DNA of 64,000 nucleotides, taken from the NCBI GenBank assembly GCA_965649765.1, contig OZ287748.1, positions 10,044,001 to 10,108,000 of the forward strand, written 5' to 3'. Made by a program: the position numbers and the translations under genes. The DNA is from Bispira polyomma. Taxonomy: Eukaryota. Shown piece after piece: positions 1 through 64,000 of this stretch; within the stretch, counting starts at the first letter, position 1, and each line of letters begins with the position of its first letter. The notes under the pieces are model-generated. The model searched no databases. It had not been told where the DNA came from and was given only the letters and a program-made list of their open reading frames with translations.

Positions 1-3000
1 TCTCACATTTTGACATTAGATGAATTATTGTTTCTGGGTCTTTGCCACATAAACCACACATATTTGTATCTATCAATTTAATTTGGAAAAGGCAATGTCT
101 GGTTCCAAGAATATTATTTAGTATTCTATATTGGAACCACTTAATGGAATTGTCATAAACTATATTAAAGCATATCTTATATACAATTTTCCATACTTCT
201 CTGTCAAAATCAGAATTTAGTATAGTATTCCATTTTATTTCACATTGCGGTCTAATAAGTGCATTATTATTATTATCATTCATAACACGATAGAAACATT
301 TGCTTCCCTTTTGTGGTTCATAGAGAATCTGAATATGTTGGATTTGGTGTGGCCTAGTAATGATAAATATTTCTTCTTTTTATGCTTTTTGATAAATGCT
401 AAAACAATTGACCGTATTCTGTAATAATTTACCTAGTTATCTTTAATTTTATATTTTCTTTGTATATCTTTAAAGTTCAATATTTCCCCAGAAGGTGTTA
501 CAACATCACCTATAATCTGTATTCCATTTCTTTCCCATTCTGGAAAGAATATTGTCCTCTCTGATAGTTGCCTATTGAACCACAAGCAGGATTGCATAAT
601 ATCTAAATTTGTATTTATGGTCATTAAATTACCAAATTCTAACCATGTAGAAAAGACATGCTTCCAAAAAGGGTTTGACAGTTTCAACAAAATAGTTTTA
701 CACCATTCAGTACCTCTTGTGAACAATTTATCTAAACTCCCGACTAGTTTTAACAAAACTTGATACCAAGGGGAAGTTGCAGAAGGTTGTTGATTTGCAA
801 TTTTTTTTACCCAACCTATCTTCAAAGATTTTTCAAAATTGTAAATGTTTATCATATTTAAACCCCCTTGTTTGTAATTTCTGTAGATTTTGTCTCTTTT
901 GACTTTATCAGGCTTTCCGTCCCACAAAAATTCGAATAGTGATTCATTTATTGCATCTAGTAATTTTGTTGATGTCAAAAAGGAAACAAATAAATGATTG
1001 AACTTTGGAATTAGGAGTGTTTTGATGAGTGTAATTTTACCCAATGGACTCAACTGCCTATTTTTCCATGATTTTATTACACTTCTAATTTTAAGCATTG
1101 CCTTTGAGTAATTTAATTCTGGCATTTCATTCAGTTTTACAGAAAACTCTATCCCAAGGAGGTTAAACTCTGTGACTCCCCACTCTAGTTCTGATGAGAT
1201 ACGGAACTTATCCTTTGAAAATTGTTTCTTACCTATCCAAATTAATTTGGTCTTATCAGTGTTCATCTTGAGACCTGATAATGCTCCATAAATTTCTAAT
1301 ACATTAAGTGTTGCCTGCAGAGATGCTAAATTGCCATCTAATATAATTGTTGTGTCATCTGCAAACTGCGTAAGCCTGTACTCTATGTCTCCAATTTTTA
1401 TACCATCTATTTCAGGGTTTACGATTATTAACTGACTTAATATTTCTGCTGCTATTATGAAGAAATATGGAGATAATGGGTCTCCCTGTCTACAACCTCT
1501 TTTAATAGGAATTGCATCAGATAAAAACCACACTGTTGCACTCGAGCAGTAATATTATTGTTAAAAAGCACAATCCAGGTTATCATCAAATCCAAAGTAG
1601 CTTAAACTTTTATACAAAAATGACCACGAAACGGAATCAAAGGCCTTTTCAAAATCTATGAGCATCAGAAGCCCAGATATATCTGTTGATTCTACATAGT
1701 GCATAACATCAAAAATTAACCTAGTGCTGTCTGCAATATTTCTACCAGTTTGGAAGCCTGTTTGTGATTTCGATATAATATTATCTAAATGAGGTTTGAG
1801 CTATTACTGATGATGCTAATTTATATGTCACACATAAAATCGAAATGGGCCGCCAATTTTTCAAAAGTTTTCGGTCTTTTGATCCTTTTGGTAGACAAGT
1901 TATAATACTTTGGCGTAGTGTAGTCGAAAGTTGACCTTTGACAAAGCAACTATTTATCGCCCGGGTTACATAAAACTTCAAATATGGCCGAAAGACTTTC
2001 AAAAAATCTGCTGATATGCCATCCATACCTGGTGTCTTATTGTTTTTCATTGGTTTTAGGGCAGAACTAACTTCATCTACATTTACAAGCTTACCCAAGT
2101 TTAGATTCTTATCGATCTTATTGCAGACGGTTTTACTTAACAAATCCTTAAAGTCTACATCATTCCCTAAGTTATCCATTTTTTTTTAACAAATTTGTAT
2201 AATAGTCTTTGATATTTTTTAAAATATCTCTCTGTTCTGTGATAATGGTACCGTTATTTAGCCGTTATTTAGCTGTTTCTATAAAATTTTGATTTGCCAA
2301 ATTACAAAAAGATTTGGTTGGTTTTTCGCCCTCATGAAGCCATTTTAGGCGAGATCTGATCATAATGCCTTTTATCTTCTCTTGCCTAAGCTGTTCTAAC
2401 TCCTGTTTTTTATCTTGTAATATCTGCATATAACGAGGGCTTATATTTTCCCTTGTTTCTATATCATTTTTCAAAATTTCTTCTTTTGAGTTCATTATTT
2501 TTTTTAATCGTGATGCAAACTTTATCGTTTCTCCTCTTATTCTAAGGTACAATAACTCGAGAAATAAGTCATCATCTACTATAAATTTTATGTTATTATT
2601 CTCATGTTTTTCTAAAAAACTATTGTCGTAAACAGGGATTGCATATTTAATTTTTTCTTCGTTAATCACATTGTTTATTAATGTCAGGTAATCTTGGTTA
2701 ACCAAAAGACTGTTGTTGAATTTCCAGACACCTTTACCAATGGTGAATTTGGAAAAAATAATACTAAGTTCTATTATGAAATGATCAGATCTATAACTTG
2801 GTTTTATATCCGAGCCACTGATCATGTCACCCATTGAACTAGATATTATAAAATAGTCTAATCGTGCTTGTTTCACTGGATTTTTCCTTCTCCAAGAGTA
2901 TCTTTTTTTATCTGGATAAATATTTCTAAAAGCGTCAATTAGAGAGCACTCATTCATAATATTCAGCATGGATTGTCTTGCTCTAGGGTTATTGATATTT

Positions 3001-3485
3001 CTATAATTACAAGTCTTTTTCTGGATTTAGAACTAAATTGAAGTCACCACATATGATATTATAATCAGAGTTGCTATCTACAATTAATTTTTGTATTTCT
3101 AAATTTTCTATATTTCAAGTATGGGGTATCTATGTTTGGGGCATATATTGTTATCAAATTGATAACTATAGTATTCAATTTCAATATTAGTTGTAAATAA
3201 TTCCCTTCATTATCTTTATTTGTAGATATAACTTCATATTCAAAGTTATTATTTAACAAAATTGCTACTCCTCGAGAATTAGTTTTTTTTCCACTTAAAT
3301 AACAATCTCCGTTCCAAACAGATTTTATTTGAGATATGTCCTTTTTTAGTAGATGAGTATCTTGAAGACAAACTATTCCTGCATTTGTGTCCTTAAAATA
3401 ATTAATAACATCATTTCTTTTTTCAACTACGCAGGCCTTGGCAGTTCGCAGACAACACAACCAGATTGTTACCTATTTTTGCCAT
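1..3485 (-). mobile_element. Tx1/L1-clade non-LTR retrotransposon ORF2 (APE endonuclease + RT), frameshifted, in intron 6 of NT5E copy A; runs off the left edge
   Basis: ATG at 3485 gives MAKIGNNLVVLSANCQGLR (APE motif I). ORF pieces contain CLQDTH, IYAPN, RLDYF, YRSDH, GVWKFNNSLL, KTPGMDG, NWRPIS, RGCRQGDPLSP and QFADD. No ORF1 seen. Confidence 0.93.
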
Positions 3486-17022: not shown

Positions 17023-18316
17023 AATCTTATAATATATTCAGAATTGAGACACATACGCATGATCACTAGAGACACAATGTTTGTCAGGATAAAAAGTGGT
17101 TTTCCATATAAAGGCAGAATAGTCATACTATATCTGGGCCTCAGTAGAGAGAATAATCTACACAACATAAATAAAAATCATCTTCACATTTCTAGATTTC
17201 TTATAGCAGCCTTTTGCCAATGTACACTTATTTGGTGACTTTAACTCCAAAATGTTATGGACTAGAGCACTATAGACAATCCAAACAATCATACATCACT
17301 GGCCTCCGTGATAAGTACTGTCTATTTATACATACAGAAAAACAGAAGTGCAGTCTATTTAAAAGCCTCTTGAGAGAAGTGAAACATAAATACATTCAGT
17401 CCACATGATTATTTTATATTAGTGCACAAACCTCACACACAAATACAGACCTCAAACGTCTACAGTTTTGTAAAACATATTTAACCAATATTATCAACCA
17501 ATATGGAAATGAAGTTGTTCTTGCTGCCTTCCCAGCACTTGCATGCTTAAAATAGAAACTGTAATGTATCGTGTACACATATAAGAATAATCTTTTAAAA
17601 AGGTGAGATGAAGGCCACTATGTGAAAGTCTGTTATAGCTGTGTTTCTTAGATATGAGCATTTAATCAATAATATCCTTTGTAAAAATTTGCTTTTTTAA
17701 CAATTTTGGATGTACAGTCCATCTTTAAGGGATTATGTCTTAATCACCATTTTATTTAAATTAGAAACCTGTTATAAAGAAATCCCAGAAGTCAAAATGG
17801 TGCGTTTGCTTCATCAACGTAAAACATAGTAGTTGTAAGTTAATTAATTCTTTGATTTCTCATATAAAATAAACTTCTATCTATGTAGCTTATAGCTGAC
17901 AAATATATTAACCACAAATATTAGGAAAATATAACATTTAACAACAATAAACCAAGATACATATTTCATAAATATGATCAATAAAGCTACAACCCCTAAA
18001 GAGTTCATTTTTGACCTGTCATACATGGCGGCACCCAGCATACGCTCATAGTAAAGGTTTCTAACCAAAAAGTCAAAGCAAACATGTATATATATTTTTC
18101 TTGTGTGATCACATTGGTGGGCTGACGCCTCGGCGGCAGGCTATCGGGGGCCAATTAGGCCACCTGGGGTCACGAGGACAAGTATAAAAGGCTTTGGCGC
18201 CCAACCAGCGCCTTCATTATATTTTAAGAATTCATACAATAAGAGTGTTTAACAATTGGCGCTTTACTACCCTATTTTATGTTTTTATACCTCTTTTAAT
18301 TTGTGTATGTGTGATA

Positions 18317-19324
18317 ATGCCTTCTAAAAAGGAGTTTCAGTGTAGTAGTTGCTTAGGAAAACATGAACGACCCGTAGGGACGAGATGTCGATTTAATCTG
18401 GATGCCAGCGTCGCCGATGATGTGCCCACCGTTGGTCCTGCTTCTGAGGTAATTACTGACTCCGTCTCTGAACAAATCCTACAGCAATTACAGTCACTCA
18501 ACAAGAAAATCGAAAGTATGGACCAACGTGTGCAGGTGACAGAGGCGGCGCTGTGCTCACCTAGCACCCATAAGGCATGTAGTACTTCTAATGTTAATTC
18601 TAATGTTAGCCACAGTGTTGCCAGTAATGTAGTCAATTCAGTAGAGGCGGTAGTACCTTCCTTAGATTTCCTACGATCAAACGAAAGTTTACAGTCCCAA
18701 GTCGACCAACGACTGCTGCAGCTACAGCAGCTTAACGAGCTCACTGGAGGTAAACTCAAATCTCAAAGAGGTGGTACTGAGGCCCCTATTAAAAGAAGTG
18801 TGGACTGGCCACAAAATTTTGTATTATCAGGGGCTAAGAAGGTACGTCCTACATACGACGACCTGTTTCTAGTGCAGTTTACTTCTGGGTTTATAAGATG
18901 TGTACAAGAACAAAAGGTTCCCGAGGTTAGAGAAGCCATGTTAGAATATTTGGCAAATTTAATGGATGACGCACACGATTTCTCGTGGGATGCAGCTAAG
19001 GCATCTCATGCCATCCTGCTAACAAATATGGAACTAGACCACCTTAAGTGGACTGACACGGATAAGGTTGACCGTATACGCCGGGCTCATGCCCAACGCC
19101 ATGTTTCTCATAGTTCAAATGGAACCAGTGCTTCCAAGGCCAGTTCTGGTAGCAAAATAAAATCACAAATAAAAACCCCAGGGGTAAACTGTCGGTTCTT
19201 TCAGGAGGGTAACTGTAAGTTCAATGCTAGAACCTCAGGGCAGTGGTTTAAGCACTGCTGTGAAACATGTGAGGGTCCTCACCAGACTAAGTTGTGCACA
19301 AAAAAGGGGATAGCAAAAAACTAG
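18317..19324 (+). CDS. Gag-like ORF of YR element 1
   Basis: MPSKKEFQCSSCLGKHERPVGTRC N-terminal Zn-knuckle-like motif, coiled coil, VDWPQNFV...SWDAAKASHA...RRAHAQ core, C-terminal Cys/His finger; homologous to 33467-34352. Confidence 0.8.
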   Translation: MPSKKEFQCSSCLGKHERPVGTRCRFNLDASVADDVPTVGPASEVITDSVSEQILQQLQSLNKKIESMDQRVQVTEAALCSPSTHKACSTSNVNSNVSHSVASNVVNSVEAVVPSLDFLRSNESLQSQVDQRLLQLQQLNELTGGKLKSQRGGTEAPIKRSVDWPQNFVLSGAKKVRPTYDDLFLVQFTSGFIRCVQEQKVPEVREAMLEYLANLMDDAHDFSWDAAKASHAILLTNMELDHLKWTDTDKVDRIRRAHAQRHVSHSSNGTSASKASSGSKIKSQIKTPGVNCRFFQEGNCKFNARTSGQWFKHCCETCEGPHQTKLCTKKGIAKN

Positions 19325-21809
19325 GGAGCCACTGCAGTAATGCAGTGGATAAGCCAGTGTTCTCAAGGACTGTATATAACTCAGAGTTCAAAGATTTTAA
19401 ATTGTGTGATAAAATGTATTTTAAACAGTATATATGTTTTAACAGAAATGTGAAAAGGACTTATAAAAATGTGGTTGTGAAAGGGAAACCGTGTATTCCC
19501 AGTGGTCTTGAGAAAGCCTCAGTGGTGGGCGAAATTGGGGGGAACAGTGTAGCAAAAAATTGTTTGGTCACAAACAATAAAAGGATCTGCACTAAAGTGA
19601 GGGACGTTACATTTGGCAAGGGGTTTAACAACAAGCATGTAAACAAAACTGTCTACTCGCCCAGACAGTCCGTCAGCAAGCAAAAAACCCACCAGAACAA
19701 AAGAAGTAGTATTGATTGTCCCCGGGGTGTCAAAAATAAATCAATGCGTGTAGAGAAACCTCTTGGTGTGGGTACTTCATTGTCCCCCTCCAAGGGGTTT
19801 ATTGCCTCGAGTGAAAACAATGGCAGTGGGTGTCAGGTTTCCCAATTACCCCTGCACAATAGATATGTTGTGTTAGAAACACCCGACGAGGAGGGGGTGA
19901 GTGTTGCTGACACGGGCTATTGTGTGCAGGCTTCCCCACGTGTGAAGACTTGTACAAAAACACCTAAACAAACAGATTTGAATAATTCTGATGACAAGTA
20001 TGCATTGGCAGTTCAAAGATCTTCTAATAAAAGACCACGTCTTAAGGACGCCAACCAATGCGACACCTTTAAATTGTGGGATATACAAAACAGTGGGAAG
20101 TTTGGCTTCATCCCCCTCGAGTCTTGGGGAAAACCCATTATAGATAAATCAAATAACCTATTGGCAATGGATGTGTTTACACTTCACAAGCATCTTAAAC
20201 TGGATGGGCGCCCTAATTATAGGGGACTCCAGGTCCCTGTGGCTTCTCAACTTAATGCCTCCGTGTGGGCTGAGTATTTGAGGGGTTATTGGGACTGGGA
20301 ACTCCCCCTGCTTGTAAAATATGGGTTTCCACTAGACTGTGTGAATGATCATGAGTTTAAGTCAGAACTTAACAACCACACCTCAGCTATTCAGTATCCG
20401 ACTCACGTGAAGCACTATTTAGAAGAAGAATGTCAGTTGGGTGCCATGTACGGGCCCTTTGAGGTGCCACCAATTTTAAAATTGCATACCTCCCCCTTCA
20501 TGACCAGGGAAAAATCAAGCTCAGTTAACCGTCGAGTGATCATTGATCTCAGCTGGCCTGAAGGCCATTCAGTTAATGCAGCTGTGTGTCCCACTTCTTA
20601 TCTAAACAAAGAATTTATGCTGACTTATCCGTCAATAGACACTATAACCTCACAAGTTATCAAAATGGGCAAAAGTTCACTGATTTTTAAAGCTGACATC
20701 AGTCGCGCTTTTAGGCATGTGCCTATGGATCCAAAAGAACTAAACTTGTTGGGGTTGTATTGGGATGGTTACTATGTGGACGGTTCGTTGCCCTTTGGGT
20801 ACAAGCATGGCTCGGCCATTTTCTAGAGGTTATCGGATGGTATCAAATATATAATGCACAAGGAAGGCCACCATATTACGAATTATATAGACGACCTCCT
20901 TTGTTGCTTGATTCCGTCAAAAATATACCATACCTATCACCGGCTTCAAGCCTTATTGGCTGAACTAGGTTTGACCTTGAGTGACAAAAAATTGGTCCTT
21001 CCGGCGACCCGGGTAACTTGTCTCGGTATCGACATAGACACGGTCAATTTAACCACCTCCATCCCAGATGAAAAATTACAAAATATCATGCCATGTGTGA
21101 CAGTTGGGCTGGTAAAAAATACTGCACAAAAAGGGAACTCCAGTGTTTACTGGGTTCACTCCTTTATGTATCTAAATATGTCAAGTACTCAAGATTTTTC
21201 TTGAATAGAATGCTTCACCTCCTCAGAAGTAATCATAAGAGCAAAAATTTCAAAATTACTCCGGATTTCCATAAAGATTTGACCTTGTTCAGAACTTTTT
21301 TGAAACAATTCAATGGTGTCTCTTTTTTCCACCATCACCCCACAACTGCCCTCATAGAACTGGATGCTTGTCTGACAGGTATGGGAAGGGGGGGGGTCTA
21401 TGGACAAAAGGTGTACGCGTTGCCTATACCTGCTCGATTACAGCATCAAAATATTGCTTCTTTGGAGATGTTAAACATTTTTGTGGCAATGAAATTATGG
21501 GGTAAGCAGTGGCAGGGTCAGAAGGTCCTCATAAAATGCGACAATCAAGCTGTGGTCAGTGTCCTTACTAATGGCAGGACAAGGGATAGTATCCTTGCCC
21601 TGTATTCACATAACATATTTATGTTAGCTAGCCATTTTGATGTAGAACTAAAAGTTATTCACATATTAGGTGACCACAATACCACTGCTGACCTGCTCTC
21701 ACGCTGGAAGGAGTCCACTGTTAACCATGTCCGTTTGCATTCTCTTGTAGGACCAGTTCAGGGGTGTCCTGTTACTGAACATCACCTGCTACTCAATGAA
21801 GACATATAA
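19321..21809 (+). pseudogene. Pol (RT + RNase H) of YR element 1, broken by a stop at 20824 and a frameshift near 21090
   Basis: YGFP, SPFMTREK, RVIIDLS, ADISRAFR, LPFG, YIDD, TCLGI; RNase H ELDAC, LEM, CDNQAVV, NTTADLLSR. Confidence 0.9.
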
Positions 21810-21848
21810 ATTGTCACTGTCTTCCTTGTAGTTTTTATTGTGTTTCAG

Positions 21849-22845
21849 ACAAAAATCCACTTCAAAAACTGTTGTATGACAATGCTGTGAGGAAACTGCA
21901 CTTAGCCTTCTGTAGGTCCACTGCTTGATCTTACAGAGCTATGTACAGGGTGTATCTGGCTTATGCTGCTTTCATGGATCGGCCTATAAATCAGGTGACT
22001 GTGTCTGATCTTCTATGTTTTTTGGAAGTTTTACAATTTAACTCTGTCAAACCTGCACACATGGCTAACTATCTGTCTGCCATCAGAGCCGAATCCATTG
22101 TGCATAATGTTCAAATACAGGCTTTCAGTGACCCTCGTGTTGCCTATTACCAAAAGGCTGTGCAAATGGCTGCCCCCCCTCAATGTTAAACTAAAAAAGG
22201 TAATAGATATCCCCACTTTGCAAAGCATTGTGAAAGTTTCGAAAAAACAACTTACATGGGGCTTGTTTTTAAAGCAGTATGTTATTGCTCAGTTATTTTT
22301 CATTTCTCAGGCTATCCAATCTTGTACCACATTCAACTGCTCAATTCTCTGCGCTAAAGCATTTAGCTAGGGCAGATGTCATGACCCACCCGGATAAAGC
22401 CGTTCTGTTGATTAAGTGGTCCAAAACAATGCAAAACAACAAGCAGATCAAACTCTTAACCATTCCTCGGTTACCGGGCTCACCATTATGCCCTGTTGGG
22501 TCACTGGAGGCCATTCTGGCCCTCACTCCATCGGGACCTAACTCACCATTGTTTCAAATTAAAGTCAATCACAAATGGGTGCCTCTAACTGACACCAGAG
22601 TGCGTCGCCACCTAAAAGATGTATTACTTAGACTAAAGTTGGAAAACTCTGGGCTTACCTTCCATGCTTTCCGTCGTTCAGGTGCCACTTTTGCTTTTAA
22701 TCATAACGTTAGCATACAAAACATACAAAATCATGGCACCTGGACTTCGGATTGCGTGTGGAGGTATGTCACAGATACTGTTGATGCTGGCCACCCAGTG
22801 GCTGATTCCTTTAGGCGTCATCTATCTGCCTCTGTCACTTCCTAA
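21849..22845 (+). pseudogene. tyrosine recombinase of YR element 1 (frameshifted)
   Basis: FLRLSN, WSKT, LCPV, HAFRRSGAT, HGTWTSDCVWRY (R-H-R-H-Y catalytic set). Confidence 0.9.
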
Positions 22846-23679
22846 CTCCTACTATTTTGGGGTTTGGCTGATTCTACTCAATTACTAGCTTTACTACATC
22901 TCTTTTCAGTTATTCTGTCAGACAGTTACATAATAGTACCTGTAAGTAATAGTAGTGTGACGTTTCCATAACAACTTCTTAATTCAAATTAGCAACTTAT
23001 GCTTTTACTTTTAATTGCTATACTGTAATTACTTTAACTTGTGATAAACTGTGTTTGTTATACTGTAACTAGTTAGTAATGTGCTATTAGACATTACAGT
23101 ACAGTAACGGCTGGAAAGTAAACCTAACTATAGTTTAATTTATCATAAACTGTGTTTACTGTAATTAGTCAGTAATATACTATTAAACGTTACAGTACAG
23201 TAACAACTTCCAAGTAAATTTAACTAGATTAAATGTTACAGTACAGTAACAACTTCAAAGTAAATTTAACTATATTAAACTTTGGATTTAAGGTCACCTT
23301 TGCTCATGCAACTGCCAAGGGCTGAGTAAATTTTATAACCTGGACTTTAAATTCTTGTTCTAAGGTGACCTTACCTAAATTTATGTTTAATGCTAAATAA
23401 AACATTTATCACTCTAAGGTGGCCTTTAAGTCACCTATCATTTGGTAACTTAACTTAATTACAGCGACCTTAAGTCACTTTGTACATAGTAGTAGTAGTC
23501 TAACACTTAGTTTTAATAAATAAATGTTTTACCGCATTCTGTCGTATATTTACCTTGTCTTCTTGACCTCTGACCTCTTGGCCTGTTACCGAGAAAATGG
23601 AATGTGATGTTGATTAATGCATAAACTGCCTTATGTAACAACATTCCCAATGTCAAACCCTGGTCACTCGGGAGTATAA

Positions 23680-24607
23680 TTGGGAGGATTGGAAGTTATC
23701 TTTAGCTATCAGGGCCATCGGGCCACTCACTCAAGTACCCAAGAAGAGGGGAAGGAAGAGGAGATGGTGACTTATGATGAGGAGGGAGATGGGGAGTTTG
23801 ATGTTGACAGACCTGAAGAGGCTCTGACTGTGGCACCGGAGATCCAGTTATCTCAGTTATCTCAGTTTACAGCCCTGCAAGACATTGAGATCCAAGATAC
23901 AGAGGGACAAGATTTAACTGGTGACGTCGAGGTCCTTTCAAGGAAGCAGAGGAAGGGGCAGATAAAGACAGTGCTACTGACCATCAAACAGGAGGAGGCT
24001 ATCATCGACTTCCTCAAGGACTATAAGTGGCTATACAACAAAGGCCACACTGGCTACAAGGACAACGAGAAGAAAAACGTGGCCTGGGAGGAGTTTTGCG
24101 GGGTCAGGGGGCTTGATGCTGGGGAAGTCAAGAAGTGGTTCCAGTCCAGTTCCCCCCCCACCCCCACTGAGTTGACGGACAGATATAGCTGGGTGAAGGA
24201 CAACTTCAAGTTCCTGCGGCCTCACATTATCTGTCAAGTGAACAGGACGGCTGGCTTTAATCCCATATCACCGGCCTCAGCTTCTGCTGGTCGTATATCC
24301 CAGACACCAAGTGTCCAAGTCTGACACAGACTAGGCTGACCGGGAGATAGAGGATTCTATGCTGTTGCCATTGCCGTTACCGGCCCGACTTTCACAACAG
24401 TCATCTACCTGATAAACTGTCGGTAATTTTGAACACCTTTAGGTAATAGGCCTTCAACCTGGTCAGCAACTTACATGGGGGTTAGATTTACCTATTTCCA
24501 GCAACAACCACGACAGCCTCATCCTCAGCCACCACAGCTCCAATCTCAGTCATCACAACAACCTCTTCCACCTCAGCACACCCCTGCCGAACAAGCCAGA
24601 CCAGTAG
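23680..24607 (+). pseudogene. Harbinger Myb/MADF-like DNA-binding protein (open to 24324; degenerate Q/P-rich tail to ~24607)
   Basis: EEAIIDFLKDYKWLYNKGHTGYKDNEKKNVAWEE...VKKWF (MADF-like) and FKFLRPHI. Confidence 0.7.
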
Positions 24608-24763: not shown

Positions 24764-26158
24764 TCAGATTCTGTCGTTCTGCCATAGCACTGCCCCGTCA
24801 TTGAGAAAGTACCCCATCAGTAGCTCTTGTTGCATTGTTGACAGCAACACACCACCGAACCTCTGGACTAGTATTCCCAATGAATTCTCGACAACCCTTC
24901 TACCCCTGGAAATTCTGTAGTTGTATATGTGCTCATTAGGGTCCATCCCTTGTCTGCAGAAGGGCTTCATCTGCCAGGGCATTAGGGCAAATGCGTCATC
25001 ACCCAGAATGAAGAAGGAGATGGGGGGCCTAAAAGGGCCTATGGTTTCTGAAGCGGGGGAAGTTGATTGAGTGATTTTCTATCCTCTGTTTCAGTTTAGA
25101 TTGATTGAAGATCTGTGCATCTGAGCTGGAGCCACTGGATCCAAGGTCCACCCAGAGGAATCTGTATTCCGCTTCAACCAAAGCCAGCAAAACAATGGAG
25201 TGGAAACTCTTGTAATTGAAGTATTCGCTCCCCCATTTCCTTGGGCATCTAATTGCAACGTGTTTTCCATCTATGGAGCCCACGGCATTGGGCACATTTC
25301 ATATCTTCCGGTACTGAGCCTCCACCTTCTTCCAGCCTGGTGGAGTTCTTGGGCAAGACAAGAATTCCTACTGGTATTCATCAATGATTTCCTGGCACAT
25401 CTAGGGATCAACTTGGTTATAGTGTACTACCCCACTGCAAAGGAGGGGCTGTGGTGGCCTAGTGGTTAGCAGGCATTGCACTTCATAATCACTGGTCTCT
25501 CACCTCTGGGATCGGCTAGCGTTGGTTCGACTCCCGTCGATGCCTATTTGGGAAAGGTGGTAGTTTCTTACTGTGGGCTGCTGGTTTCAGTGCAGAACCT
25601 TGATCAACTGTATGCAGTGTTTCCTTCAGCGTTTCCAACTACCCGTCCCAATATAACCTAAACAGGTACTAGAGGGGACGTTAAATATCCCAACTCAATC
25701 ACCCACTGCAAAGGAGTAATGTAGAGAACTTTAGGTCTCCCCAGTGGCCAAATGTCTCAATGTTATGGCGATCTTCAGTCTAAGGGACAGTGTCTTCCTA
25801 AACCAGATGGCCTGCTTCTTGACCATCCCCCACCCTCCTCTCCATCTCTTGGAATGCATTAAGGGACATCCTCAGGAAGTTATGGTATAACTCCCCAATC
25901 TTGTAGTTCCAGGAATGGGAGAAGTGCAGAGTAATACAAATGCTCCTCACGTTGCTTGAGCCATGGCTTCACCCAGAATCAACGTCTGGCCCTTTCTTCT
26001 GTGACGACTTTTCCTTGACCTATATTTTCTGTGTCTGTCTCTCTTCTTAACATGTCTATTCTTCTTTGCAGATGTAAAAAATCCATCACTTGCAGTCTCA
26101 TTGAAGTCATTATAACTTGAAGTACCCTGATAATCTCTATTACTCTTTGTAGAACCAT
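24764..26158 (-). pseudogene. Harbinger (DDE_Tnp_4-type) transposase, with stops, frameshifts and a SINE insertion
   Basis: [74 protein letters not shown]. Confidence 0.9.
25446..25701 (+). mobile_element. young tRNA-derived SINE inserted in the transposase
   Basis: TGGCCTAGTGG A-box, GGTTCGACTCC B-box; 15-bp TSD CCCACTGCAAAGGAG at 25431 and 25702; closely related to 45838-46088. Confidence 0.92.
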
Positions 26159-31716: not shown

Positions 31717-33245
31717 CTGGAAAACCACAATGAAACAATAAAACAAAGACACTAACATTCCTCTCAATAGAGTGCATACCTTCGACTAATCTTGTGACCA
31801 CATGAGAGTGCTGAAGGATGTAATAAGAAATGACTACATCTTCTAAAATCTGGAGAACAACAAAAACAATGATAACAACACTAGAAGGACAACTCAGTGG
31901 AGTGTATACCTCCACCAAGGTGCCACTGAAAAACTAAATCTGTGGATCTGTCCTTCTATTTTCATCCACTAAAAATATATAATGAATTATTCTGGGACAA
32001 CAACAGAATGACAGTGAGTAGACTGCATTCCTCTGCCCAAATAAATATAATTTTTGGGGGGATCATGGATCCTCTTCAAAATATAATTTAATTCAACTAT
32101 ATTAATTTTGACTATTGGCTAAATTTAGTTCAAAAAATTTAGTTAAACTATATTAATTTTGACTATTGGCTAAATTTAGTTTAAATATTTAAATAAATTG
32201 AACCTTTCACTAGAAATAAACTATTTAACGTTGCTAGCTATTAAATATTTATATAAACTCCTAGTGCAAATGTCCACATGATCAGTATTAGGCATAAGGG
32301 TGTGTAATTGGTTAGCAAAAATACATCCATAGCTATACACATACAAGTTCAACACAGCTTTGCTTCCCTTTTTCAGATTTTTCAGTATATATATTGCTTA
32401 CTATGACTCACTAAAGATAAATTTGTACATAAGGTTCACACATATACTTCAGGTAAAAGGTAAAAATTATTTTGTAGAAAGCTGTGAGAGACATGAGATT
32501 ATACTAGCAAGAAACAAAATGATTTACATAAGGACATTATGGTGTAAAAGCAAGGTCATAATTGTATTGAATGTGTGCTTAATAAATACCCTATTCGGAA
32601 CAGAAACCAGGTGGAACATTTAATAACAATTTTTAATACTGATTATTTATTTTAGCCAGAACTTTATGTATTAAAAAAATAAAACTAATCGGGTGCAGTG
32701 TTTCGGCATTGCACTTGTCAGTCCTCCACAACCACAAAATTCTGAGGGTACCAGTCTAATTGACAGGTAACTTATGTTGTGTAAACAAGTAAACATTCTC
32801 TCTGTTACTAAGGCAAAAACCCCTAACTGGCTTCTCATTGGTTAGAGAATGAGTCAATGTTATTTCCCAGAAAATACTGGTCAGTTTAAAATCAGTCACT
32901 GACATAGCGACATGATATTACAAATTTTACACTTTATTTGTTTTGGTTTTATTTTATTTACAACGATTTTAGTTTGTTTACGTGGATTTACAAGGACTGT
33001 TTTAGTTTTTTAATTGTGAACATTGCATTGAAGGGATTCTACAGACGTGTCTCAGCAGCTCTTTCTTGACAACATCACGCTTGATTTAGCCTATTTGGCC
33101 AGAGAAAAAGGGACGTAACAACCCATTCATTATTCAGTTAAATCTGATTATTTATAAATCAAGCCGTGAAAAGGTCTCGACAGAGCACTGTGGGTGTGTA
33201 TTATGTTTTGATTTCAGTGACTAAATTGACAATTGAAATACAGAA

Positions 33246-34352
33246 ATGCCGAAAAAATCTCAGTGTAATAAAAAAGTGGGAAAAAGTGTACAATGGATGT
33301 CGAAGTCGGGACTGATTTTATTGTGCGGGAAAGCAATACACCAACTCTGGCCCAAAAAGTGGTGGACACTCCTGTTAACGGGTAGAGGGGATGTAGATCT
33401 CAAGGGCAGGTAGCAGACCAGGTAGAGGACAGCATACAGCTTCAGATACTGCAACAACTTCAAAAGGTGAATTCGAGGCTTGATGCATTGGAGGAACAAG
33501 TAGCCGAGTCCAGTTCCAGGAGCCAGAGATCAGCACCACGGCAGGCAGGACACAAGTTAAGTAGAACAGTTTCCAGTAGAGTGTCTCAGAGTCATTATAG
33601 TAATGATAAAAGTAAAAGCCCAGTACAGTCAGATAACGAGTCATCAGATGAGGAGCACATGTTGCTTAGGTTAGCGGTCCTTAGAAATTCAGTTGCATTA
33701 CAGCGTCAAGTTGATGATAGAGTCAGGGATCTAGAACAAAGTAATCAGACAGGTACTGAGCATGTAGGGAAAATTAAGTCCAAAAGGGGGGGCCCTGTTG
33801 AAGTTTTGGTAAAACATAAGGTGGCTTGGCCCCAGGAGGTCACACTGGGTGGTACAACAAGAGTTAGGTTGTCTTATGATCAATTGTCTATGTCCCAGTG
33901 GACGCAGGGTTTTTGTAAAAACATTATTGATGAACCTGATCAGGTTATAAGAGAGAAAATGCTTTTCTATATGTCAGATTTGATGGAGGACGTCACTGAT
34001 TTCAGTTGGTCTGGGGCTAAAGCTACCGCACGCAGTGCTACTGTGTGAAATGGAGCGGGGTACCCTTACTTGGCATGACACTAACCGTATTGACAGAATT
34101 AGAAGGGCTCATGCCCAAAAACATACAAGTAGTGCTAATGGTGCTAAGAATTGGGTAAAAAATAATGATGGTCACAAAACATGGTTCTGTAAGTTTTTTC
34201 AAAATGGCACATCTCAGCACACGAAGGACCATGAAGTCAATGGCAAAATCCACAAACACATTTGTTCACATTGCATACAGCAAGGTCGTCTATTAGTGCA
34301 TGCTGAGAAAGACTGTGTATTCACTAAGAAAACACAGCCAAAAAACGAGTAG
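33246..34352 (+). pseudogene. Gag-like ORF of YR element 2 (frameshifted)
   Basis: KIKSKRGG..VAWPQE..FSWSGAK..RIRRAHAQ..CKFFQNG..HICSHC, homologous to element 1 Gag. Confidence 0.8.
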
Positions 34353-36467
34353 AGGGCTGTCCCCCAAGGTTTAAACAGGAGGGCAGCTGTGGTAAAATTG
34401 GTGGTGGTGTAAAATCCATTGTACATAATGATTTTAAAGTAAGTAAAATGCTAGTGGGTTCAAATGAACAGAATAGTGTAAATGAAAGAGTGGTAAAGCA
34501 CGGCCCAGTGTATAGGGCTTCCAGATATGTTTACAGTTCAGCAATGAGAAAAGCTGACATAGATAGCTTGTTTGCTCGTCCATTAAGCGAGTTAGTTCGC
34601 GTTTATAAAGCACTGGTCAGTAATGTCGCAGGCAGATCATATGCTAGTGTGGTTAAAACCGGCCGTAAATGCATGTCGACTAACAAGCGAGTAGCAAATA
34701 GATATTTGCCTGATACCAAACTTACTATTTCTAGTGAGGGTGAACAAAACGTGAAACGTGGTGACAACAATGTGTCAGTTTGTGATGACAAACATAAAAC
34801 CAGTGACACAAAAACTCAAGATATTGACGTAGACAGTTCGAAGTTTGCACAGAAAATAGTGGGAAGCGGAAATTCTCAAGAAACAAAATTATTGTTTGAT
34901 ATCAATAATATGGGAGAAGATAAATTTATCAACTCCATTATTTTTAACAATGTAAAAGATCTAACAAAGAAAGTGCTGTCGGAATGTAACAGCTTTAAGC
35001 TGTGGCGGGCACAGTCAGAGTTCAATTTCGGCTTTATTCCACTGACTGATCCAATGTCATCAGAAAATAAAACTCATGTCAACGCTACTATTGATTGTCC
35101 TATTGCATGTCATAATGAAGTCAAAAAATGGGGTAGACCAAATTTTTTGGGGGCTCGTATTCCTGTCAAATCACAGTTGAATATTACAAATTAGAAAGAA
35201 ATGTTAAAAGACTATTGGGATCAGCAGTTAATCGAATTGCTTGAATTTGGATTCCCTTTAGGTTTCAATAGAAACTGCAAGCTCAGTAGTGACGTTGACA
35301 ATCACAAATCAGCTACACAGTACCCGAATGATGTGGACGTGTATATTGCTGAAGAAAAAGCACATGGTGCAATCATTGGTCCTTTTAAGGAAAATCCCAT
35401 AATAAATTGCCATCATTCACCATTTATGACTCGTCCCAAACCCAATTCAGAAAATAGACGAGTCATCATTGACCTTAGTTGGCCAAAAGGCGAGTCGATA
35501 AATGCAGGGGTCGACAAAAATGGTTACATGGGTACTGATTTCAAACTCAGCTTTCCTACTATTGATAATTTGACAGATGAGCTCACAAAGTTGGGAAAAG
35601 GTGCCAATATATATAAGCTAGACGTGAGTAGGGCCTTTAGGCATGTGAAAATTGACCCTGGGGATTACGATTTGCTCGGCTTACCTGGGTATTCTGATAG
35701 ACACCGTTCAAGGTACGGTATCAATACCGGAGGACAAATTGCAATAAATTCCAAAAACTCTCAGGAAATGGCAAACTAAAGTATATTGTACAAAAAAGAA
35801 ACTGCAGTCATTACTGGGCCAGTTGCTTTACGTGCACAAATGCGTTAAACCAGCAAGGTGTTTTTTTAATAGAATGCTACAGTTGCTTAGAGACGTGGTT
35901 AATCCCAGTAAAATAATCCTGACACAGGATTTTAAAAGAGACCTAAGGTGGTTTGATCGGTTTCTCCCGTTGTATAATGGAGTATCCATATACCTTCACA
36001 AAATCATAGATCATACGTTAGAACTTGATGCTTGTCTTATTGGGTTGGGAGGGAGATGGAAAAATCTCGTATATCACCTTCCCATAACAAAGTTTTTCAG
36101 AAATTTGGGCATTGTCCAACTGGAAATGGTTAACATTTTGGTAGCGTTAAGATTGTATCGAAGTTACTGGTACAGTAAAAAGGTGCTTGTTAAATGTGAT
36201 AATGAAGCAGTGGTGAAAGTGCTAAATTCAGGTAGAGCTAAAGACCCTTTCTTGTCGGCGTGTGCTAGAAACATATGGTATACAGCTGAATTGGCAGATA
36301 TAGAGTTACAGTATGTGCATGTCTTAGGCAAGAATAACAGAGTAGCTGATTTGTTGTCTAGATGGACCCAGTCCAGTAGTGATGTTCATGAATTACACTC
36401 ATTGGTGGAAGATCCATTATGGTTACAGGTTAACATTGAGTTGACAGAAATTGATAGTGAATTGTAG
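34346..36467 (+). pseudogene. Pol (partial RT + RNase H) of YR element 2
   Basis: FGFP, SPFMTRPK, RVIIDLS and LDVSRAFR are present; the sequence jumps from DLLGL to LGILIDT near 35683, so LPFG and YxDD are missing; RNase H ELDAC, CDN and ADLLSR are present. Confidence 0.88.
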
Positions 36468-36519
36468 ATATTTAGGTGACGTAATTATGTAACACAGATA
36501 CTATACTTTGTACTTGCAG

Positions 36520-37500
36520 AGACAACAGCACTGACTCAATTGCAGACGCAAGCCAGTCACAGATTACATACAGCCTTCAGGCCAAAGGACCAGAAAGTGT
36601 TGTGTTATGTTATTCAAGACATTCTTGGCTTTCTGTATATGTGTAAATTTGGCTTTGGAGGCCTTAGATGTAAATAATGTGCTTTCATTCTTAGAATATC
36701 TAGTAGAAAACAAAGTTTCAATATACATGGTTGCTAATTATGTTGCGGCCATCAAAGCTATGTGCATTGTGTATGATCTGCCATTCAGCGGTTTGGATCA
36801 CCCAAAAATCAAATACTTTATAAAATCCTTAAAAGTAAATAGAGTTCATAAAATTGTAAAACGCAATGTCATGGATGTTGACACGTTGAAATTACTGGTG
36901 TCGCAGTGTAATCATATAAGTAATTCACATACATTCAAAGCCATTTTTCTCACCGGTTTTTTCGGCTTCTTGAGGTTATCCAATATAGCTCCACATGCAA
37001 TAGCAGAATTTGATCCATCACATCATTTTACAGGAGGCGACGTCTTCTTTGATGGAAGCTCAGTTAGGTTGCTCATTAAGTGGTCTAAAACATTACAAAC
37101 CAGAGATAAGATACGAGTATTAACTTTGCCAAGATTAGGCTCAGCTGTCATCTGCCCTTATGCGGCTTTAAAGAAATTATTCAAACTTTACAATCCTGGG
37201 AAATCAGATCCATTATTTCAGTGTAGCATAAAAAGGGGTTGGCAGATTGTGACTGACGCTAGGGTCAGAAAAACTTTGTCTGGCTTGAACACAAAATTGG
37301 GTTTTCACAAGAACTATTTTACATTTCATGCATTTCGGTGTTCAGGTGCCACATTAGCGTATAATAAGCATGTACCAATTCAACAAATTAAACAACATGG
37401 CACCTGGACGTCCGACTGTGTCTGGAGATACATACAGTTTGATCCTAATGGGGGCACACAGGTGGCCTCTGCCTTCCAACAAATACTACATAATGCTTAA
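36520..37500 (+). CDS. tyrosine recombinase of YR element 2 (open 36607-37500)
   Basis: GFLRLSN, WSKT, ICPY, HAFRCSGAT (second catalytic Arg reads Cys), HGTWTSDCVWRY. Confidence 0.88.
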
Positions 37501-38505
37501 TGTATTCCCTACTGTTGGGTTTGAGGCTCTTTTATAAAGTAACTATCTGTAAACCAAAAGTGGAATAATGTCTTATCTCAAGTTTAGGTCACCTCAAGTT
37601 TAGTTTACCTAATATGGTTAAAAGTTAACCTCTAAGCTAACCGAAACTTAAGGCTAACACTTAAACTTAAAGTTAATCTTAACTAAAACTTAACTTTAAC
37701 TTAATTTGTTTGTACTTAAAGTTAAAAATTTTGTATTTACTTAACTTAATTTGTGATAAAGTGTTAATTGTGATGTTATTGTGTAAACATGTCAAGAGAT
37801 GTAAATATACAGTAGTTAGAGTGCATTTATACAAATATTACATTTTATATATACAATTTTATATAATAAAATTATATACCCTCAGTGAGTCATTATTCGG
37901 ACATGAGTTGTGATGGGGACTGCAGCAATTTTTAAAATATGACAAAGAACCCCAGGGAATGTATTCAAGTAGCTTGAAATCAAAGAAGAGCCGTTTATTT
38001 ATTATATATTTTGTTTTATCAAATTGAATGCACAGTTACCATAATGAGCATTGACACCTCCTCTCGGTATACAGGCCAAACTGCAAAACCAGCACTCCAC
38101 CATATCTAACATTGGATTCTCTGGGATACAAGATGGCTAGGAAGAATATGACTTATTGTAGAAAATAGCATTTTCAGTTTTCTCCTACAGGAATAAACTG
38201 AGGGAGAGCCATCAGTGAAATCATTTCATCATTTGGATTGGATGAAGCATATTTTTGACTTGGGAATTGAAGATGCAATGTACAGGATGTATATCTAACC
38301 AAATATGGTTACCATTTTATACAAAGAAACTAGGGGAACAATACATTAGCATACATACACTTCCTAACAAGTCGCAAGCCTCTGCAAATATGTTTATTGT
38401 TTAAATACTTCAAATAGCAAGGAATTTATTGAAAATGCATTCTTTAAGATATATTTGATTATCCTCAAAAAGAAACAGAATTTCATATCTTTCCCAAGGT
38501 TAATA

Positions 38506-48399: not shown

Positions 48400-51300
48400 A
48401 TTAGATATACTGAATTGAAGGCGTGCATTGTAGAATGTCGGGTTTTAGCCTCTCACCTTGTGTCAATAAATACTAATCATTAGGCATTATTCAGTGCCAC
48501 CCAGGGTTTCGCCAAAAATTCCCAAGCTTGTAAACAAGTTCTGGGGGAACCCTCATTCTTGGAAAACTTTTGGAGTGGGCACATCAAAAGCTCCTTGGTT
48601 GATTTTAACAACCAACAAAACTTGAGAACAGTGGACGAATCGCAATCACTAGCAGAAATGAGGACCAAAGGTACCAAGAAATGAGTCAAATGCAAACCAA
48701 ATAAAGCTGACGTCCTCCCCAAGCTGGATCGGGTGATGAAGTAGTTCTCGGAATTAGAAGATTGGTTAGACAGCCAGGAACAGGGACGCAATTCAGCCAT
48801 GTCTATTGAAGCCATGTCTATGTGCCCTCTGTACATAGCTGGCCTAAATCCAGGCCGTTAGGGTGACAGGATCCGACTGCGAGAGCCACAGCCAGGCTGC
48901 CGCCGATGGATTTTCTCAGGACAGACTCACCGATCCAAGATGATGTGGATAGGAGACTGCGATAATATCAAGACATATCCAGAGATGTGATAACAGGTCT
49001 GCTTCCTAATAAACCTAATAGACGTTATAGGCTGGGTAAGCAGCATGTAAAAATGTCTGTCACCTGGCCTAATGAGCATTGCATGCTCTCGGATGCTATG
49101 AAAATGCCTACATACGAGGAACTTTCAATCTGTCAGTGGGTTTCCCTGTTGTGTGCTTCAAGAACCTGATGAAACGGTAAGACAAAATGTGCTAAGATAC
49201 CAATACAACCTAATGCAGGACGCTGTGGACTTGTCATGGGTGACGGCTAAACGTGCTGACGCCGCTATACTGTTAGAGATGGAAAGGGTTATGGTTTCCT
49301 GGGAGGACCAAGGCTAGATTGACCAAATTAGACAGAGGTTTAGCCAGCGAGCCCTTAAGGCGGGCGCCTGTAAGTTGGACCATGATCACTAAGAAGGGGG
49401 GCGCTTGCAGAAGCACTTCTGCGTTAGTGTTACCAAGTAATTCACCAGAACGATTACCATGCAGAAATTAAGTGCTACCGAAAGCAGAAAGAGTCGGGTA
49501 AGGGTCTAACGAATGATAGTGTAAGTCAATTTTTCTATTTACGCACTGGGTAGCTGCAGTATTTTTTGGAATAGTAAACATCGAGGTCAATGTTTTTGTA
49601 ATTAGTGTGATAGGACCTTAAACAGATAAATACAATGTAATGTGAGTAATAATGCGAACTTTAGTAGACAATGTCTTCACCCTAGAAGATGTGGGGAATA
49701 TGGACTTTGATATAAATATCACTATTATGTGTAGCATTTATAATAGTTTAAGTAGTTTCAACAGAGACAATGTCTCCACCCTTAGAGGTGTGGGGAATAT
49801 TAACAGTGACGTACGTAGATGTCACTGTTGTGTGTAGTAGTCGTTTAAGTGGTTTCAATAATATCACTAGTATGTGTAGCAGTAGAATGAACAATAGTTC
49901 ACCACACAGTTTGGGTGTGGGAAGATTTACCAACGAGATCGCCTGCCAGAGCCAAGCCTCTGTGGGCATAGATGCTAGTGAAGTTAATACAGAGAATTTC
50001 ATAAGCAATGAAAGTCAGTATTATGTATGCAATCAGTTGGATAAAAGCCAGGTATTTTAGTGATAAATCATGCCAACTCTCTTTTAATGTTAGCAGAGCT
50101 ATCCTGCAAGGCCAGTTCTGAACTAGTGTCAACCAATTAAGCGAAACAATGAGTGTGGGGCAGCCCCCAGTCAATTAAAACATTCCACTTAAAACATTGT
50201 CACTGGAATATGACCAGTTCCAATATAACCAAACTGTAGTAAATCACGCTTTGGCTAGCAACCACCCTCAGCATGTAAATAAATACCTTAACACTGAAAT
50301 TGAATTCAAGGCAATGATTGGACCTCTGACAGTAAGTCTGTTTCCCAAATTGCATGTATCTCCTCTGATGTCCCACCTGAAACCGGATGGGAGTAGAAAG
50401 ATCATAGTGGATCTATCATGGCTGAAAGGCAATAGTGTCAATACTTGTATACTAAAGAATGTGTTTGATGTAGTATAGTTTCAGTTGTCGGTAGGATAGC
50501 CTTGATAGGCCCTAAGGCGTTGTTATACAAAATTGATCTAAAACAGGCCAATAGAAATTTGAGAAGTGACCCCTTTGATTATTTCGCACTAAGTTTAGGT
50601 TGGGAAGGTAATTATTATGTGGACATCAGCGTTACATTTGGCCTGTCCTCAGGTGCACGTGCCTGCTGAATGACCACGGATTATGTAACGTTTGGTATGC
50701 GCGACTGGGGCCATTAGACCTGCGCGTATTTAGACAATTAAATGGGGCTATTAGACCTGCGCGTATTTAGACAATTAAATGGGGCCATTAGACCTGGCAT
50801 ATTTAGACTACCTATCGCTTCCTTTACAAGGTCGATGAACCTGCCCAAACTATAACATGCCTTGGTATCAACATAAACACTCACACTGGGATTGTAACAA
50901 TACATGGGCGACCCGTTGAGTTACAGCAATTATTAGGCAAATTAATCTCTATACATCGCTGTGTCAAGCCAGCCAGGCTTTTTGTGAATAGAATATTAAG
51001 CATTTTGAGGGGGACTCCCCCCATACTGTGGTCCCGTTGAACAGTGCCTTTCATAAAGCAGTCAACTTGTTTTGTACTTTTCTAGAATAATACAACAGGG
51101 TAACAGTCATTTATAAAATCGACTCTCATAGAGAACAAGTGTTTGTAGACATGTCACTACAAAGTTTAGAGGCCTATTGGAATGGCCAAGTATATAGTGT
51201 GAATTTTCCCAACGAGTATAAGAGTCAGTCGGTATTGTGCAATTTAAGATGTGTAACACATTAGTACACTTTATGGAGAGAAATGGAGAAACAGAAGTAT

Positions 51301-51600
51301 ATATATACATTGTGATAATATGGCTGTGCTGAATAAGTCAAAAGATAAAGACGTTTTTCTCAATGTCTCTGCTAGGACATTATCTTTACTGCAAGCCACA
51401 TACAATATCGACATCTCAGTATAACATATCTGCAGTACTGATAATAGATATGCAACATTCTGTCGCTTTGGGCACAATTCCACAGGATATTTAAAGCCGA
51501 AGTCCAACACCTAAAAAATTGTATATGGTATAATGTTAAAATACAATGGTTAGTACCTAACTATGGCATTTAATTATTGTAGGTAACAGCCTGATCAGAC
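48400..51600 (+). mobile_element. highly decayed DIRS/Ngaro-like YR retrotransposon 3 (gag and pol remnants, YR lost), in intron 1 of copy B
   Basis: VTWPNEH, PTYEELSICQW, LHVSPLMS..KPDGSRKIIVDLSW, KIDLKQA, CAYLD, CVKPARLFVNR. Confidence 0.8.
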
Positions 51601-62579: not shown

Positions 62580-64000
62580 GAATAATAATAATATATCAGA
62601 CTTTTTAGCGCTTATTTTCGTTGTAACGAATTCTAAGGCGCAAAAAAACCACAACCAGAGTCGAAAAACAAAGGTGATAGACATAAGGAAGTCGTCATCA
62701 ATGCGTCCACCGAGAATGGGAAAGAGACTATGGAGGGAATGCATCATTGAACAGATAGGTCTTTAAACTGCGCCAAAAGGAATACAGGGACGGAGCTGTC
62801 CTAATGCATTGCATTGCGATGCATTGCAATTTCTAATGTGTTGAGGCAAACTATTCCATAGGGTAGGGGCATCATTTGCAAAACTTTTATCAAAGTGAAC
62901 CTTTGACTTGTGTACTTTGGACTTATATTATTTTGGAACAAGAAGGAATCTATTTTTGGGAACGGCTCTCCTGGTGTTGACATTGCACTTGTAGTAACTC
63001 AAGTGTGGTTCAAAGTATTTAGGCAAACCTGAATCGAGAAACTTATATACTATTGTAGCACTTTTAAGAACACACCGATACCTAACAGGGAGCCAGTGGA
63101 GTGACTTCAGAATTGGTGAAGCATTTGAAAACTGAGCAGAACAACTGACCAGACGTGCCAATGAGTTCTGGATGCATTGCAATTTCTTTAGGTCCTTTTT
63201 GGTCAAGCTGCGATAAAGTGAATTACAGTAGTCCAGTCTGCTACCAACAAGAGCATTTCCTGCAGTTATTGCAACCGATTTTGGAAGGTACCTCCTGATT
63301 CTCCTAAGGTTTCTGAGACCCATGAAGCATGACTTACACACTGATTGAATATGACTGGAAAATGAAAAATCACTGTCAAACAAAACTCCCAGGTTCCTCA
63401 CTTTATCAGTTGTGGATAACAGTGTCCCAAGAATATTTGCAGGAAAAGAATTTGACAGTTCAGCACGTTGAGTGCCCGACCCAAACAATATGAATTCGGT
63501 TTTAGCAGGGTTCAGCTTGAGCTTATTTAGCGCCATCCAATTTTGAACATCTGCTAAGCATTTCTGAAGGACTTCCAGGGCACTGATTGATGTGTTAGGA
63601 GTAAGGTGCACGTAAATCTGTGTATCATCTGCATAGAAGTGATACTTTAGAGAAGAATAGGAGGAAATAATTTTGCTAAGGGGTGTAGTATATAATGAAA
63701 ATAGGAGTGGTCCAAGCACAGACCCTTGCGGCACACCGAATTTCAGCACTTGTAAGTCAGACAGAATATCGCCAATTTTAATAGACTGGTACCTGTCTGT
63801 CAAGTAGGAAACAAATCATTGCAAGACCTTCAGACCAAACCAGGTTTTTAGTCTTTCAATGAGGACATTGCGATCAATAGTATCGAAAGCAGCTGATAAG
63901 TCTAACAGTACTAATGCAGTGGAAACACCCTTTGATAAAGACATATGAATATCGTTTTTAATATAAAGCAGAGCTGTTTCAGTTGAATGGTATTTTTTAT
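62580..64000 (-). mobile_element. L2/CR1-type LINE, RT and 3' end
   Basis: LDLSAAFDTID, GVPQGSVLGPLLF, YADDTQIY, LKLNPAKTE, SRLDYCNS, LHWLPV; tail GCGCTAAAAAGTCTG-(ATT)n near 62580. Confidence 0.92.

Follow-up and report, generated by a model that had tools for sequence, protein, structure and literature searches.

The window analysed here, a 64,000-nucleotide (nt) stretch of the Bispira polyomma genome (GenBank assembly GCA_965649765.1, contig OZ287748.1, positions 10,044,001 to 10,108,000 of the forward strand, numbered below from its first letter), carries three members of a group of retrotransposons that is abundant in this genome and whose intact copies encode Gag, reverse transcriptase/ribonuclease H (RT/RNase H) and a tyrosine recombinase (YR). 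We describe a donor-like site within gag and an acceptor-like site immediately before the YR region, through which the recombinase would be expressed by splicing onto the N-terminus of Gag. Window elements 1, 2 and 3 represent one each of clades 1, 2 and 3, and all are broken copies; the evidence is therefore drawn from relatives. The elements and their principal coding regions are as follows.

18115-23599 (+): element 1 (clade 1), A-ORFs-B form (ORF, open reading frame), a dead copy with ends set by comparison with family copies
18317-19324 (+): gag of element 1, an open frame of 335 amino acids (aa)
19291-21809 (+): RT/RNase H of element 1, whose frame is -1 with respect to gag; intact in relatives, here interrupted by a stop (20824-20826) and a later frame change
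21849-22845 (+): YR coding region of element 1 (putative exon 2), broken by a stop at 21926 and a frame change near 22190-22270
32689-37922 (+): element 2 (clade 2), dead and lacking an internal part of RT
36520-37500 (+): YR coding region of element 2, with a frame change about 20 codons in
51583-51600 (+): YR remnant of element 3, five codons beyond which relatives no longer match

The genome searched comprised 1.04 Gb in 75 contigs and held at least 124 YR, at least 120 gag and at least 150 RT matches. Loci retrieved included 88 from clades 1 and 2, mostly selected for open frames, together with three extensions and 13 clade-3 loci; copies grouped at 85% identity constitute a family, and clades 1 and 2 provided 31 such families. 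Intact copies matched RVT_1, RNase H-like and Phage_integrase models of Pfam, the last at E 1.6e-5 and 25.2 bits, just below the curated 27.1, with conservation of the YR residues R152, H270 and Y304. RT, RNase H and recombinase all lie on one strand, without a DDE integrase, and no methyltransferase domain was detected in three of three intact Pol frames (E up to 1), in which RNase H extends nearly to the stop. The element 1 Gag has a CxxC-H-C motif at its N-terminus, two long helices by prediction, a helical core and C-terminal Cys/His clusters. Clusters of this kind are conserved at both Gag ends, as compared without applying exact published zinc-finger patterns. An earlier note on this DNA had assigned the N-terminal motif to element 1; it is indeed present there, but is common to all three clades and merely decayed in window elements 2 and 3. 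A fold search with Gag gave no match at E 0.001, and the ESM Atlas gave only unnamed clusters, with low recognition.

The order A1-ORFs-B1-A2-spacer-B2 was seen in all three extended copies (L074, L105, L032), and most copies, including those of the window, end at B1. The 5' end is repeated downstream in 17 of 86 copies, part of these being flank repeats. The A2-B2 spacer is unique, 275-570 bp long, and begins CCCACCC (L111, L112 and L113, downstream of L074, L105 and L032); it is common to related families at 73-74%. Its absence from most copies, together with A2 and B2, perhaps reflects B1/B2 recombination. The DIRS1 arrangement, in which inverted terminal repeats accompany an internal complementary region, was found neither in the window elements nor in 20 self-comparisons. 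By the structural scheme of PMC4157794 the elements are Ngaro-like YR retrotransposons, a placement made from structure alone, which the available text of that source cautions is homoplasious as a classifier. In the L105 family a 100-aa piece of YR recurs at 100% identity in at least 24 places, a recent burst.

Donor and acceptor sites

The sites in question are listed below, with a slash marking the boundary between exon and intron.

18317-18749 (+): coding part of the putative exon 1 of element 1 (144 codons plus 1 nt)
18748-18755 (+): element 1 donor AG/GTAAAC, phase 1
18750-21848 (+): putative GT-AG intron of element 1, 3,099 nt, extending over the core of gag and the whole of RT/RNase H
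21830-21848 (+): element 1 pyrimidine tract followed by the acceptor CAG; family copies have it 40 nt past the RNase H stop
33751-33758 (+): element 2 donor AG/GTACTG, phase 1
36500-36519 (+): element 2 pyrimidine tract and CAG acceptor, after a clade-wide TACTAT motif
48995-49002 (+): element 3 donor AG/GTCTGC (AG/GTATG in relatives)
51555-51582 (+): CTAAC resembling a branch point, tract and acceptor TAG, in element 3

Inspection confirmed all six sites that the earlier note had proposed, namely GAG/GTAAAC (18749/18750), CAG/GTACTG (33752/33753), CAG/GTCTGC (48996/48997) and acceptors whose AG ends at 21848, 36519 and 51582, along with the phase 1 of the three donors, the entry of the element 1 and 2 acceptors into the YR frame in phase 1, and the location of RKLHLAF (element 1) and HRLHTAF (element 2) upstream of the first in-frame Met. 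In element 1 the 433 nt from the gag ATG (18317) to the donor give phase 1, and the first full codon past the acceptor (21849) starts KNPLQKLLYDNAVRKLHLAF in the YR frame, with element 2 behaving likewise; the acceptor of element 3 is also phase-matched, its next five codons reading NSLIR where intact relatives read NSLSR. The proposal that the donor occupies the same protein position in every gag holds approximately and not exactly, the site lying one codon before a K-x-K-S anchor in clade 1 and six codons before it in clade 2.

Eighty-one copies span the donor and 79 could be anchored, of which 77 read AG/GTA, one TG/GTA and one AG/GCA; by family, the counts were 25 AG/GTA and one AG/GCA (26 families). 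The codon preceding the site ends in A in 26/26 families across five amino acids (24 of them four-fold boxes), the donor Gly codon is GGT in 25/26, and position +3 is A in 26/26, again across five amino acids, as compared with a range of 0.33-0.76 in which other four-fold gag columns peak. Profile mapping of splice-like sites over Gag-Pol (3,513 position-phase pairs) placed the gag donor as the top AG/G[TC]R site, with 14 of 27 families at one profile position and 9 at the neighbouring one. No second conserved acceptor, as might serve RT, occurred in more than 12/30 families within alignable Gag-Pol, where the variable Pol N-terminus is poorly covered. In an AlphaFold model of Gag (mean predicted local distance difference test 67.5, predicted template modelling score 0.36) the donor falls in a low-confidence linker, residues 144-154, predicted to be disordered and to separate helix 123-142 from the core, and appears to mark a domain boundary.

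For the acceptor, 91 sequences were examined and 86 anchored on the Ala-Phe motif of YR. A blind score chose an AG at 55-60 nt in 83 of these; in the other three it chose an AG 86 nt upstream, also phase-matched, with the usual AG present as well. Within a fixed window the distance from AG to the conserved Phe was 56 nt in 58 copies, 59 nt in 25 and one base off in three. Since the AG itself had been picked by this procedure, the evidence lies in this fixed distance and in the flanking bases, which across 31 families were a pyrimidine at -3 in 31 and T at -5 in 31, at -6 and -8 in 30 each, and at -10 in 29. The spacer between the RNase H stop and the acceptor measures 27-82 nt and falls into the three frames 10, 11 and 9 times (30 families), so that sequence upstream of the acceptor is not kept in frame with pol while that downstream is kept in codons. 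A branch-point-type TRAY, scored without a control, lies at -36 to -17 in 17/31 families, and CTAAT occurs in clade-3 loci. Most clade-2 families also retain TACTAT or TGCTAT 13-20 nt before the AG (window 36500-36507); the motif could pair with U2 small nuclear RNA, given its consensus, and it yields an ATG at -16 when the next base is G.

Beyond clades 1 and 2, AG/GTATG is found in 10/13 clade-3 loci and YAG at 56 nt in 9/12. A more distant set comprised 27 metagenome loci of 26-37% identity, 18 of them anchored and two pairs near-identical; the best pyrimidine-rich YAG was phase-matched in 17/18, where chance would give one third, and a phase-1 G/GTA candidate follows the same helix in six of six distant gags, chosen by eye among 2-8 GGT codons each. 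Among public YR proteins (93/120 anchored), a dipeptide compatible with YAG/G stands at the expected offset in 49/55, the frequency elsewhere being at most 0.33, and in public Gags (34 anchored of 150) the linker glycine is compatible with A G/GT A in 33/34, as against 116/370 other glycines. Four features of a U2-type intron are present: GT donor, pyrimidine tract, YAG acceptor and compatible phase.

Such motifs might instead arise, with no splicing at all, from constraint on the proteins, common descent and spacers rich in T. The families are related, silent-site constraint exists elsewhere in YR, where 8 of 86 four-fold columns reach 0.77-1.0 (the other 78 being at or below 0.68), and the Gag-Pol scan returned two further AG/GC sites in gag, confined to clade 1 (9/9), and an RNase H site under a laxer pattern (19/30). 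All eight constrained YR columns, however, sit within a single RNA stem, and the donor persists through three clades and into relatives of 27-37% identity, with five different amino acids before it and five after it; we judge this explanation most improbable.

In a second alternative, YR translation would begin at a nearby ATG that follows the RNase H stop, by reinitiation or from a separate short RNA, as the main or a second route and mainly in clade 2. Upstream of the AG, 18/31 families (15/22 in clade 2, 3/9 in clade 1) carry an open in-frame ATG, the clade-2 families concerned including young multi-copy ones, and ATGs within 60 nt upstream number 28 in frame versus 11 and 15 out of frame. 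These counts argue for local initiation and against a recombinase made by splicing, though the choice of loci by open frames may inflate them. The position of this ATG nevertheless varies from -16 to -55; it is missing from 13/31 families, from all 12 clade-3 loci scored and from 12/18 distant loci, in which no Met precedes the YR motif; and the ATG at -16 belongs to a conserved TACTATR motif, which reads either ATG or ATA there and is shifted out of frame in some families. Local initiation also leaves the gag donor unexplained, and we regard it as unlikely. The earlier note had set a conserved YR ATG without conserved AG and GT against its own proposal; we found the opposite, GT/AG and phase being conserved across families and no ATG position being so.

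A proposed expression plan

The junction between gag and pol carries signals of a different kind.

19315-19348 (+): element 1 slippery heptamer A_AAA_AAC (19315-19321) and stem (19329-19348), a putative -1 frameshift signal
34340-34390 (+): element 2 slippery heptamer (34340-34346) and stem

Among 33 gags of clades 1 and 2, three of which were left out as fused or truncated, an in-frame slippery heptamer lies at the end of 30/30 intact sequences (29 A_AAA_AAC, one A_AAA_AAT), a stem of -14 to -21 kcal/mol follows it in 29/30, and the -1 frame is open for 817-860 codons in 13 copies. On these signals, RT is probably reached by -1 frameshifting in clades 1 and 2. At two loci, L060 and L108, a single frame contains both gag and pol.

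We propose that one promoter would serve three proteins. Unspliced RNA would be translated into Gag and, through -1 ribosomal frameshifting at the end of gag in clades 1 and 2, into Gag-RT-RNase H. Removal of one GT-AG intron of 2,926-3,237 nt would yield a spliced RNA joining the gag start and its N-terminal 140-190 codons, with the Cys/His motif and the two long helices, to the YR frame in phase 1, and hence a Gag(N)-recombinase of ~470-520 aa. From signals, phases, conservation and reading frames, all observed directly, we strongly infer, with high confidence, that splicing occurs and that it pairs the gag donor with the YR acceptor, because the two share a phase and no other donor is conserved across clades. 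The three-product explanation as a whole seems to us nearly as secure. That the Gag portion anchors the recombinase to Gag particles or directs where the element inserts is a more tentative proposal, suggested as regards anchoring by the retained Gag helices, and its chances are perhaps a little short of even.

The acceptor could also be real but joined to a donor in a non-coding 5' leader, in the manner of env, with YR starting at the first downstream Met and the gag donor serving another role, such as U1 protection from early polyadenylation. In plant Copia, according to the available text of PMC5580714, U1 at the gag donor blocks early termination, and in clade 2 a tract and AG resembling an acceptor lie in the 5' untranslated region (UTR), 30-40 nt ahead of the gag ATG (window 33205-33220; L041, L061, L072), so that leader splicing may exist, suggesting a 5'-UTR intron. 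The first Met past the YR acceptor lies 1 to 53 codons in, however, usually beyond the conserved RL-x-x-AF helix, and the fixed phase and the 56/59-nt distance make sense only if the intervening codons are translated; both sites, moreover, are phase 1. This arrangement appears very unlikely.

Several observations weigh against the splicing of gag to YR and the plan built on it. The donor consensus is weak past +3; clade-3 copies L152 and L154 have both lost the AG (common TGG); and no A_AAA_AAC was found at the gag end in 14 clade-3 sequences, L149-L161 among them. Because the families are related and donor offsets were set after inspection of the data, the counts are non-independent. No spliced genomic copy appeared among 60 matches, and no open frame of 450-550 aa among the best 150 of 166, the longest open frames being 358 among 124 matches and 382 among 150. 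Nor did any of 150 Gag N-terminal hits among proteins run into YR (57 run into the Gag core, 93 into neither), and a search for longer proteins found none above 395 aa. These are weak tests, since only top candidates were scored and the proteins appear to have been called from genomic DNA. Three sequencing runs covered intergenic sequence in the manner of genomic runs, and none of 15 joints inspected out of 507 fell at the predicted sites, a result that favours neither side.

RNA stem and neighbouring sequences in the window

22663-22758 (+): conserved RNA stem within the YR coding sequence of element 1; also at 37327-37422 in element 2
23680-24324 (+): MADF-like ORF (Pfam E 0.0011), just past element 1
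24764-25298 (-): fragments facing the MADF-like ORF, which we take to resemble Harbinger-type transposase
25227-25883: extremely high-copy short repeat in sequencing runs, with tRNA-like ends, probably a short interspersed nuclear element
433-3026 (-), about 52400-53800 (-) and 62928-63815 (-): fragments resembling non-LTR (long terminal repeat) retrotransposon endonuclease/RT, by eye

The stem pairs RSGA with HGTWTS codons and contains all eight silent-site-constrained YR columns mentioned above. Two of its 18 predicted pairs have two-sided change, with a covariation term of only -0.14, and it is possibly a replication or packaging signal.

Comparison with known systems

Retroviruses and Ty3/gypsy elements produce Gag-Pol by -1 frameshifting at a signal made up of an X_XXY_YYZ heptamer, a short spacer, a stem and an overlapping -1 frame, and the same four components are present here. 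Unlike theirs, the Pol described here has neither protease nor integrase, so that the recombinase needs its own route. Foamy virus pol, retroviral env and gypsy env are expressed from spliced subgenomic RNAs, and spliceosomal introns have been noted in some fungal DIRS-order elements. The present product would differ from those of other spliced retroelement RNAs in being a chimera from which the Gag core and RT are left out, with the Gag N-terminus leading directly into an integration enzyme. The comparison with retroviral env drawn in the earlier note is loose, since env normally has its own start and the present scheme would fuse a coding exon of gag. The splicing of Gag to YR that the note proposed is supported at the level of sequence.

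Among published systems, shGAG of plant Ty1/Copia (PMC5580714) is alike, in the portion of that account available, in that genomic and spliced RNAs set the ratio of structural to catalytic protein. Ngaro-like elements, as characterized in the available text of PMC4157794, PMC9210276 and PMC8547959, likewise encode gag, RT/RNase H and YR from a single strand, lack a methyltransferase and have split direct repeats of the A1-B1-A2-B2 type, seen here in some copies; here, by contrast, YR has no overlap with pol and no fixed start, the A2-B2 spacer of 275-570 bp is unique, and no hydrolase ORF was seen. In the same portions of these papers Ngaro-like ORFs are described only as overlapping or frameshifted, splicing not being mentioned. 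Pat1-like elements of echinoderms and molluscs resemble the present ones in the split direct repeats of some copies and in Gag Cys/His motifs (PMC4157794, in its available part) and differ in that PAT-like elements carry a methyltransferase after RNase H. Neither Gag-YR splicing nor frameshifting was found described for elements of this class in the available parts of the literature searched, which included PMC5580714, PMC7192593, PMC9341512, PMC6681497, PMC9210276, PMC4157794, PMC8547959, PMC3783388 and PMC12477816, two key reviews and supplements lying outside that scope.

Published accounts of the third gene of DIRS-order elements, in the portions available, leave its route of translation unstated. 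The sites described here supply exact, testable junctions and redefine the recombinase protein: gene calls for YR in databases start between 2 and 74 residues ahead of the conserved motif and would miss a Gag-derived N-terminus, a matter relevant to both annotation and biochemistry. In Cafeteria Ngaro elements ORF1 tracks with target choice, as stated in the available text of PMC8547959, and a Gag(N)-YR fusion would offer a mechanism for that link. If true, the spliced chimera and RT frameshifting would together make up a complete three-product expression plan for the class. We reason, with the chances about evenly balanced, that in a wide animal lineage of YR elements the recombinase may exist only as a spliced chimera with the zinc-binding and helical N-terminal domain of Gag, an arrangement that would replace the Gag-Pol-integrase polyprotein of LTR-type elements in bringing the enzyme into the particle and perhaps in choosing target sites.

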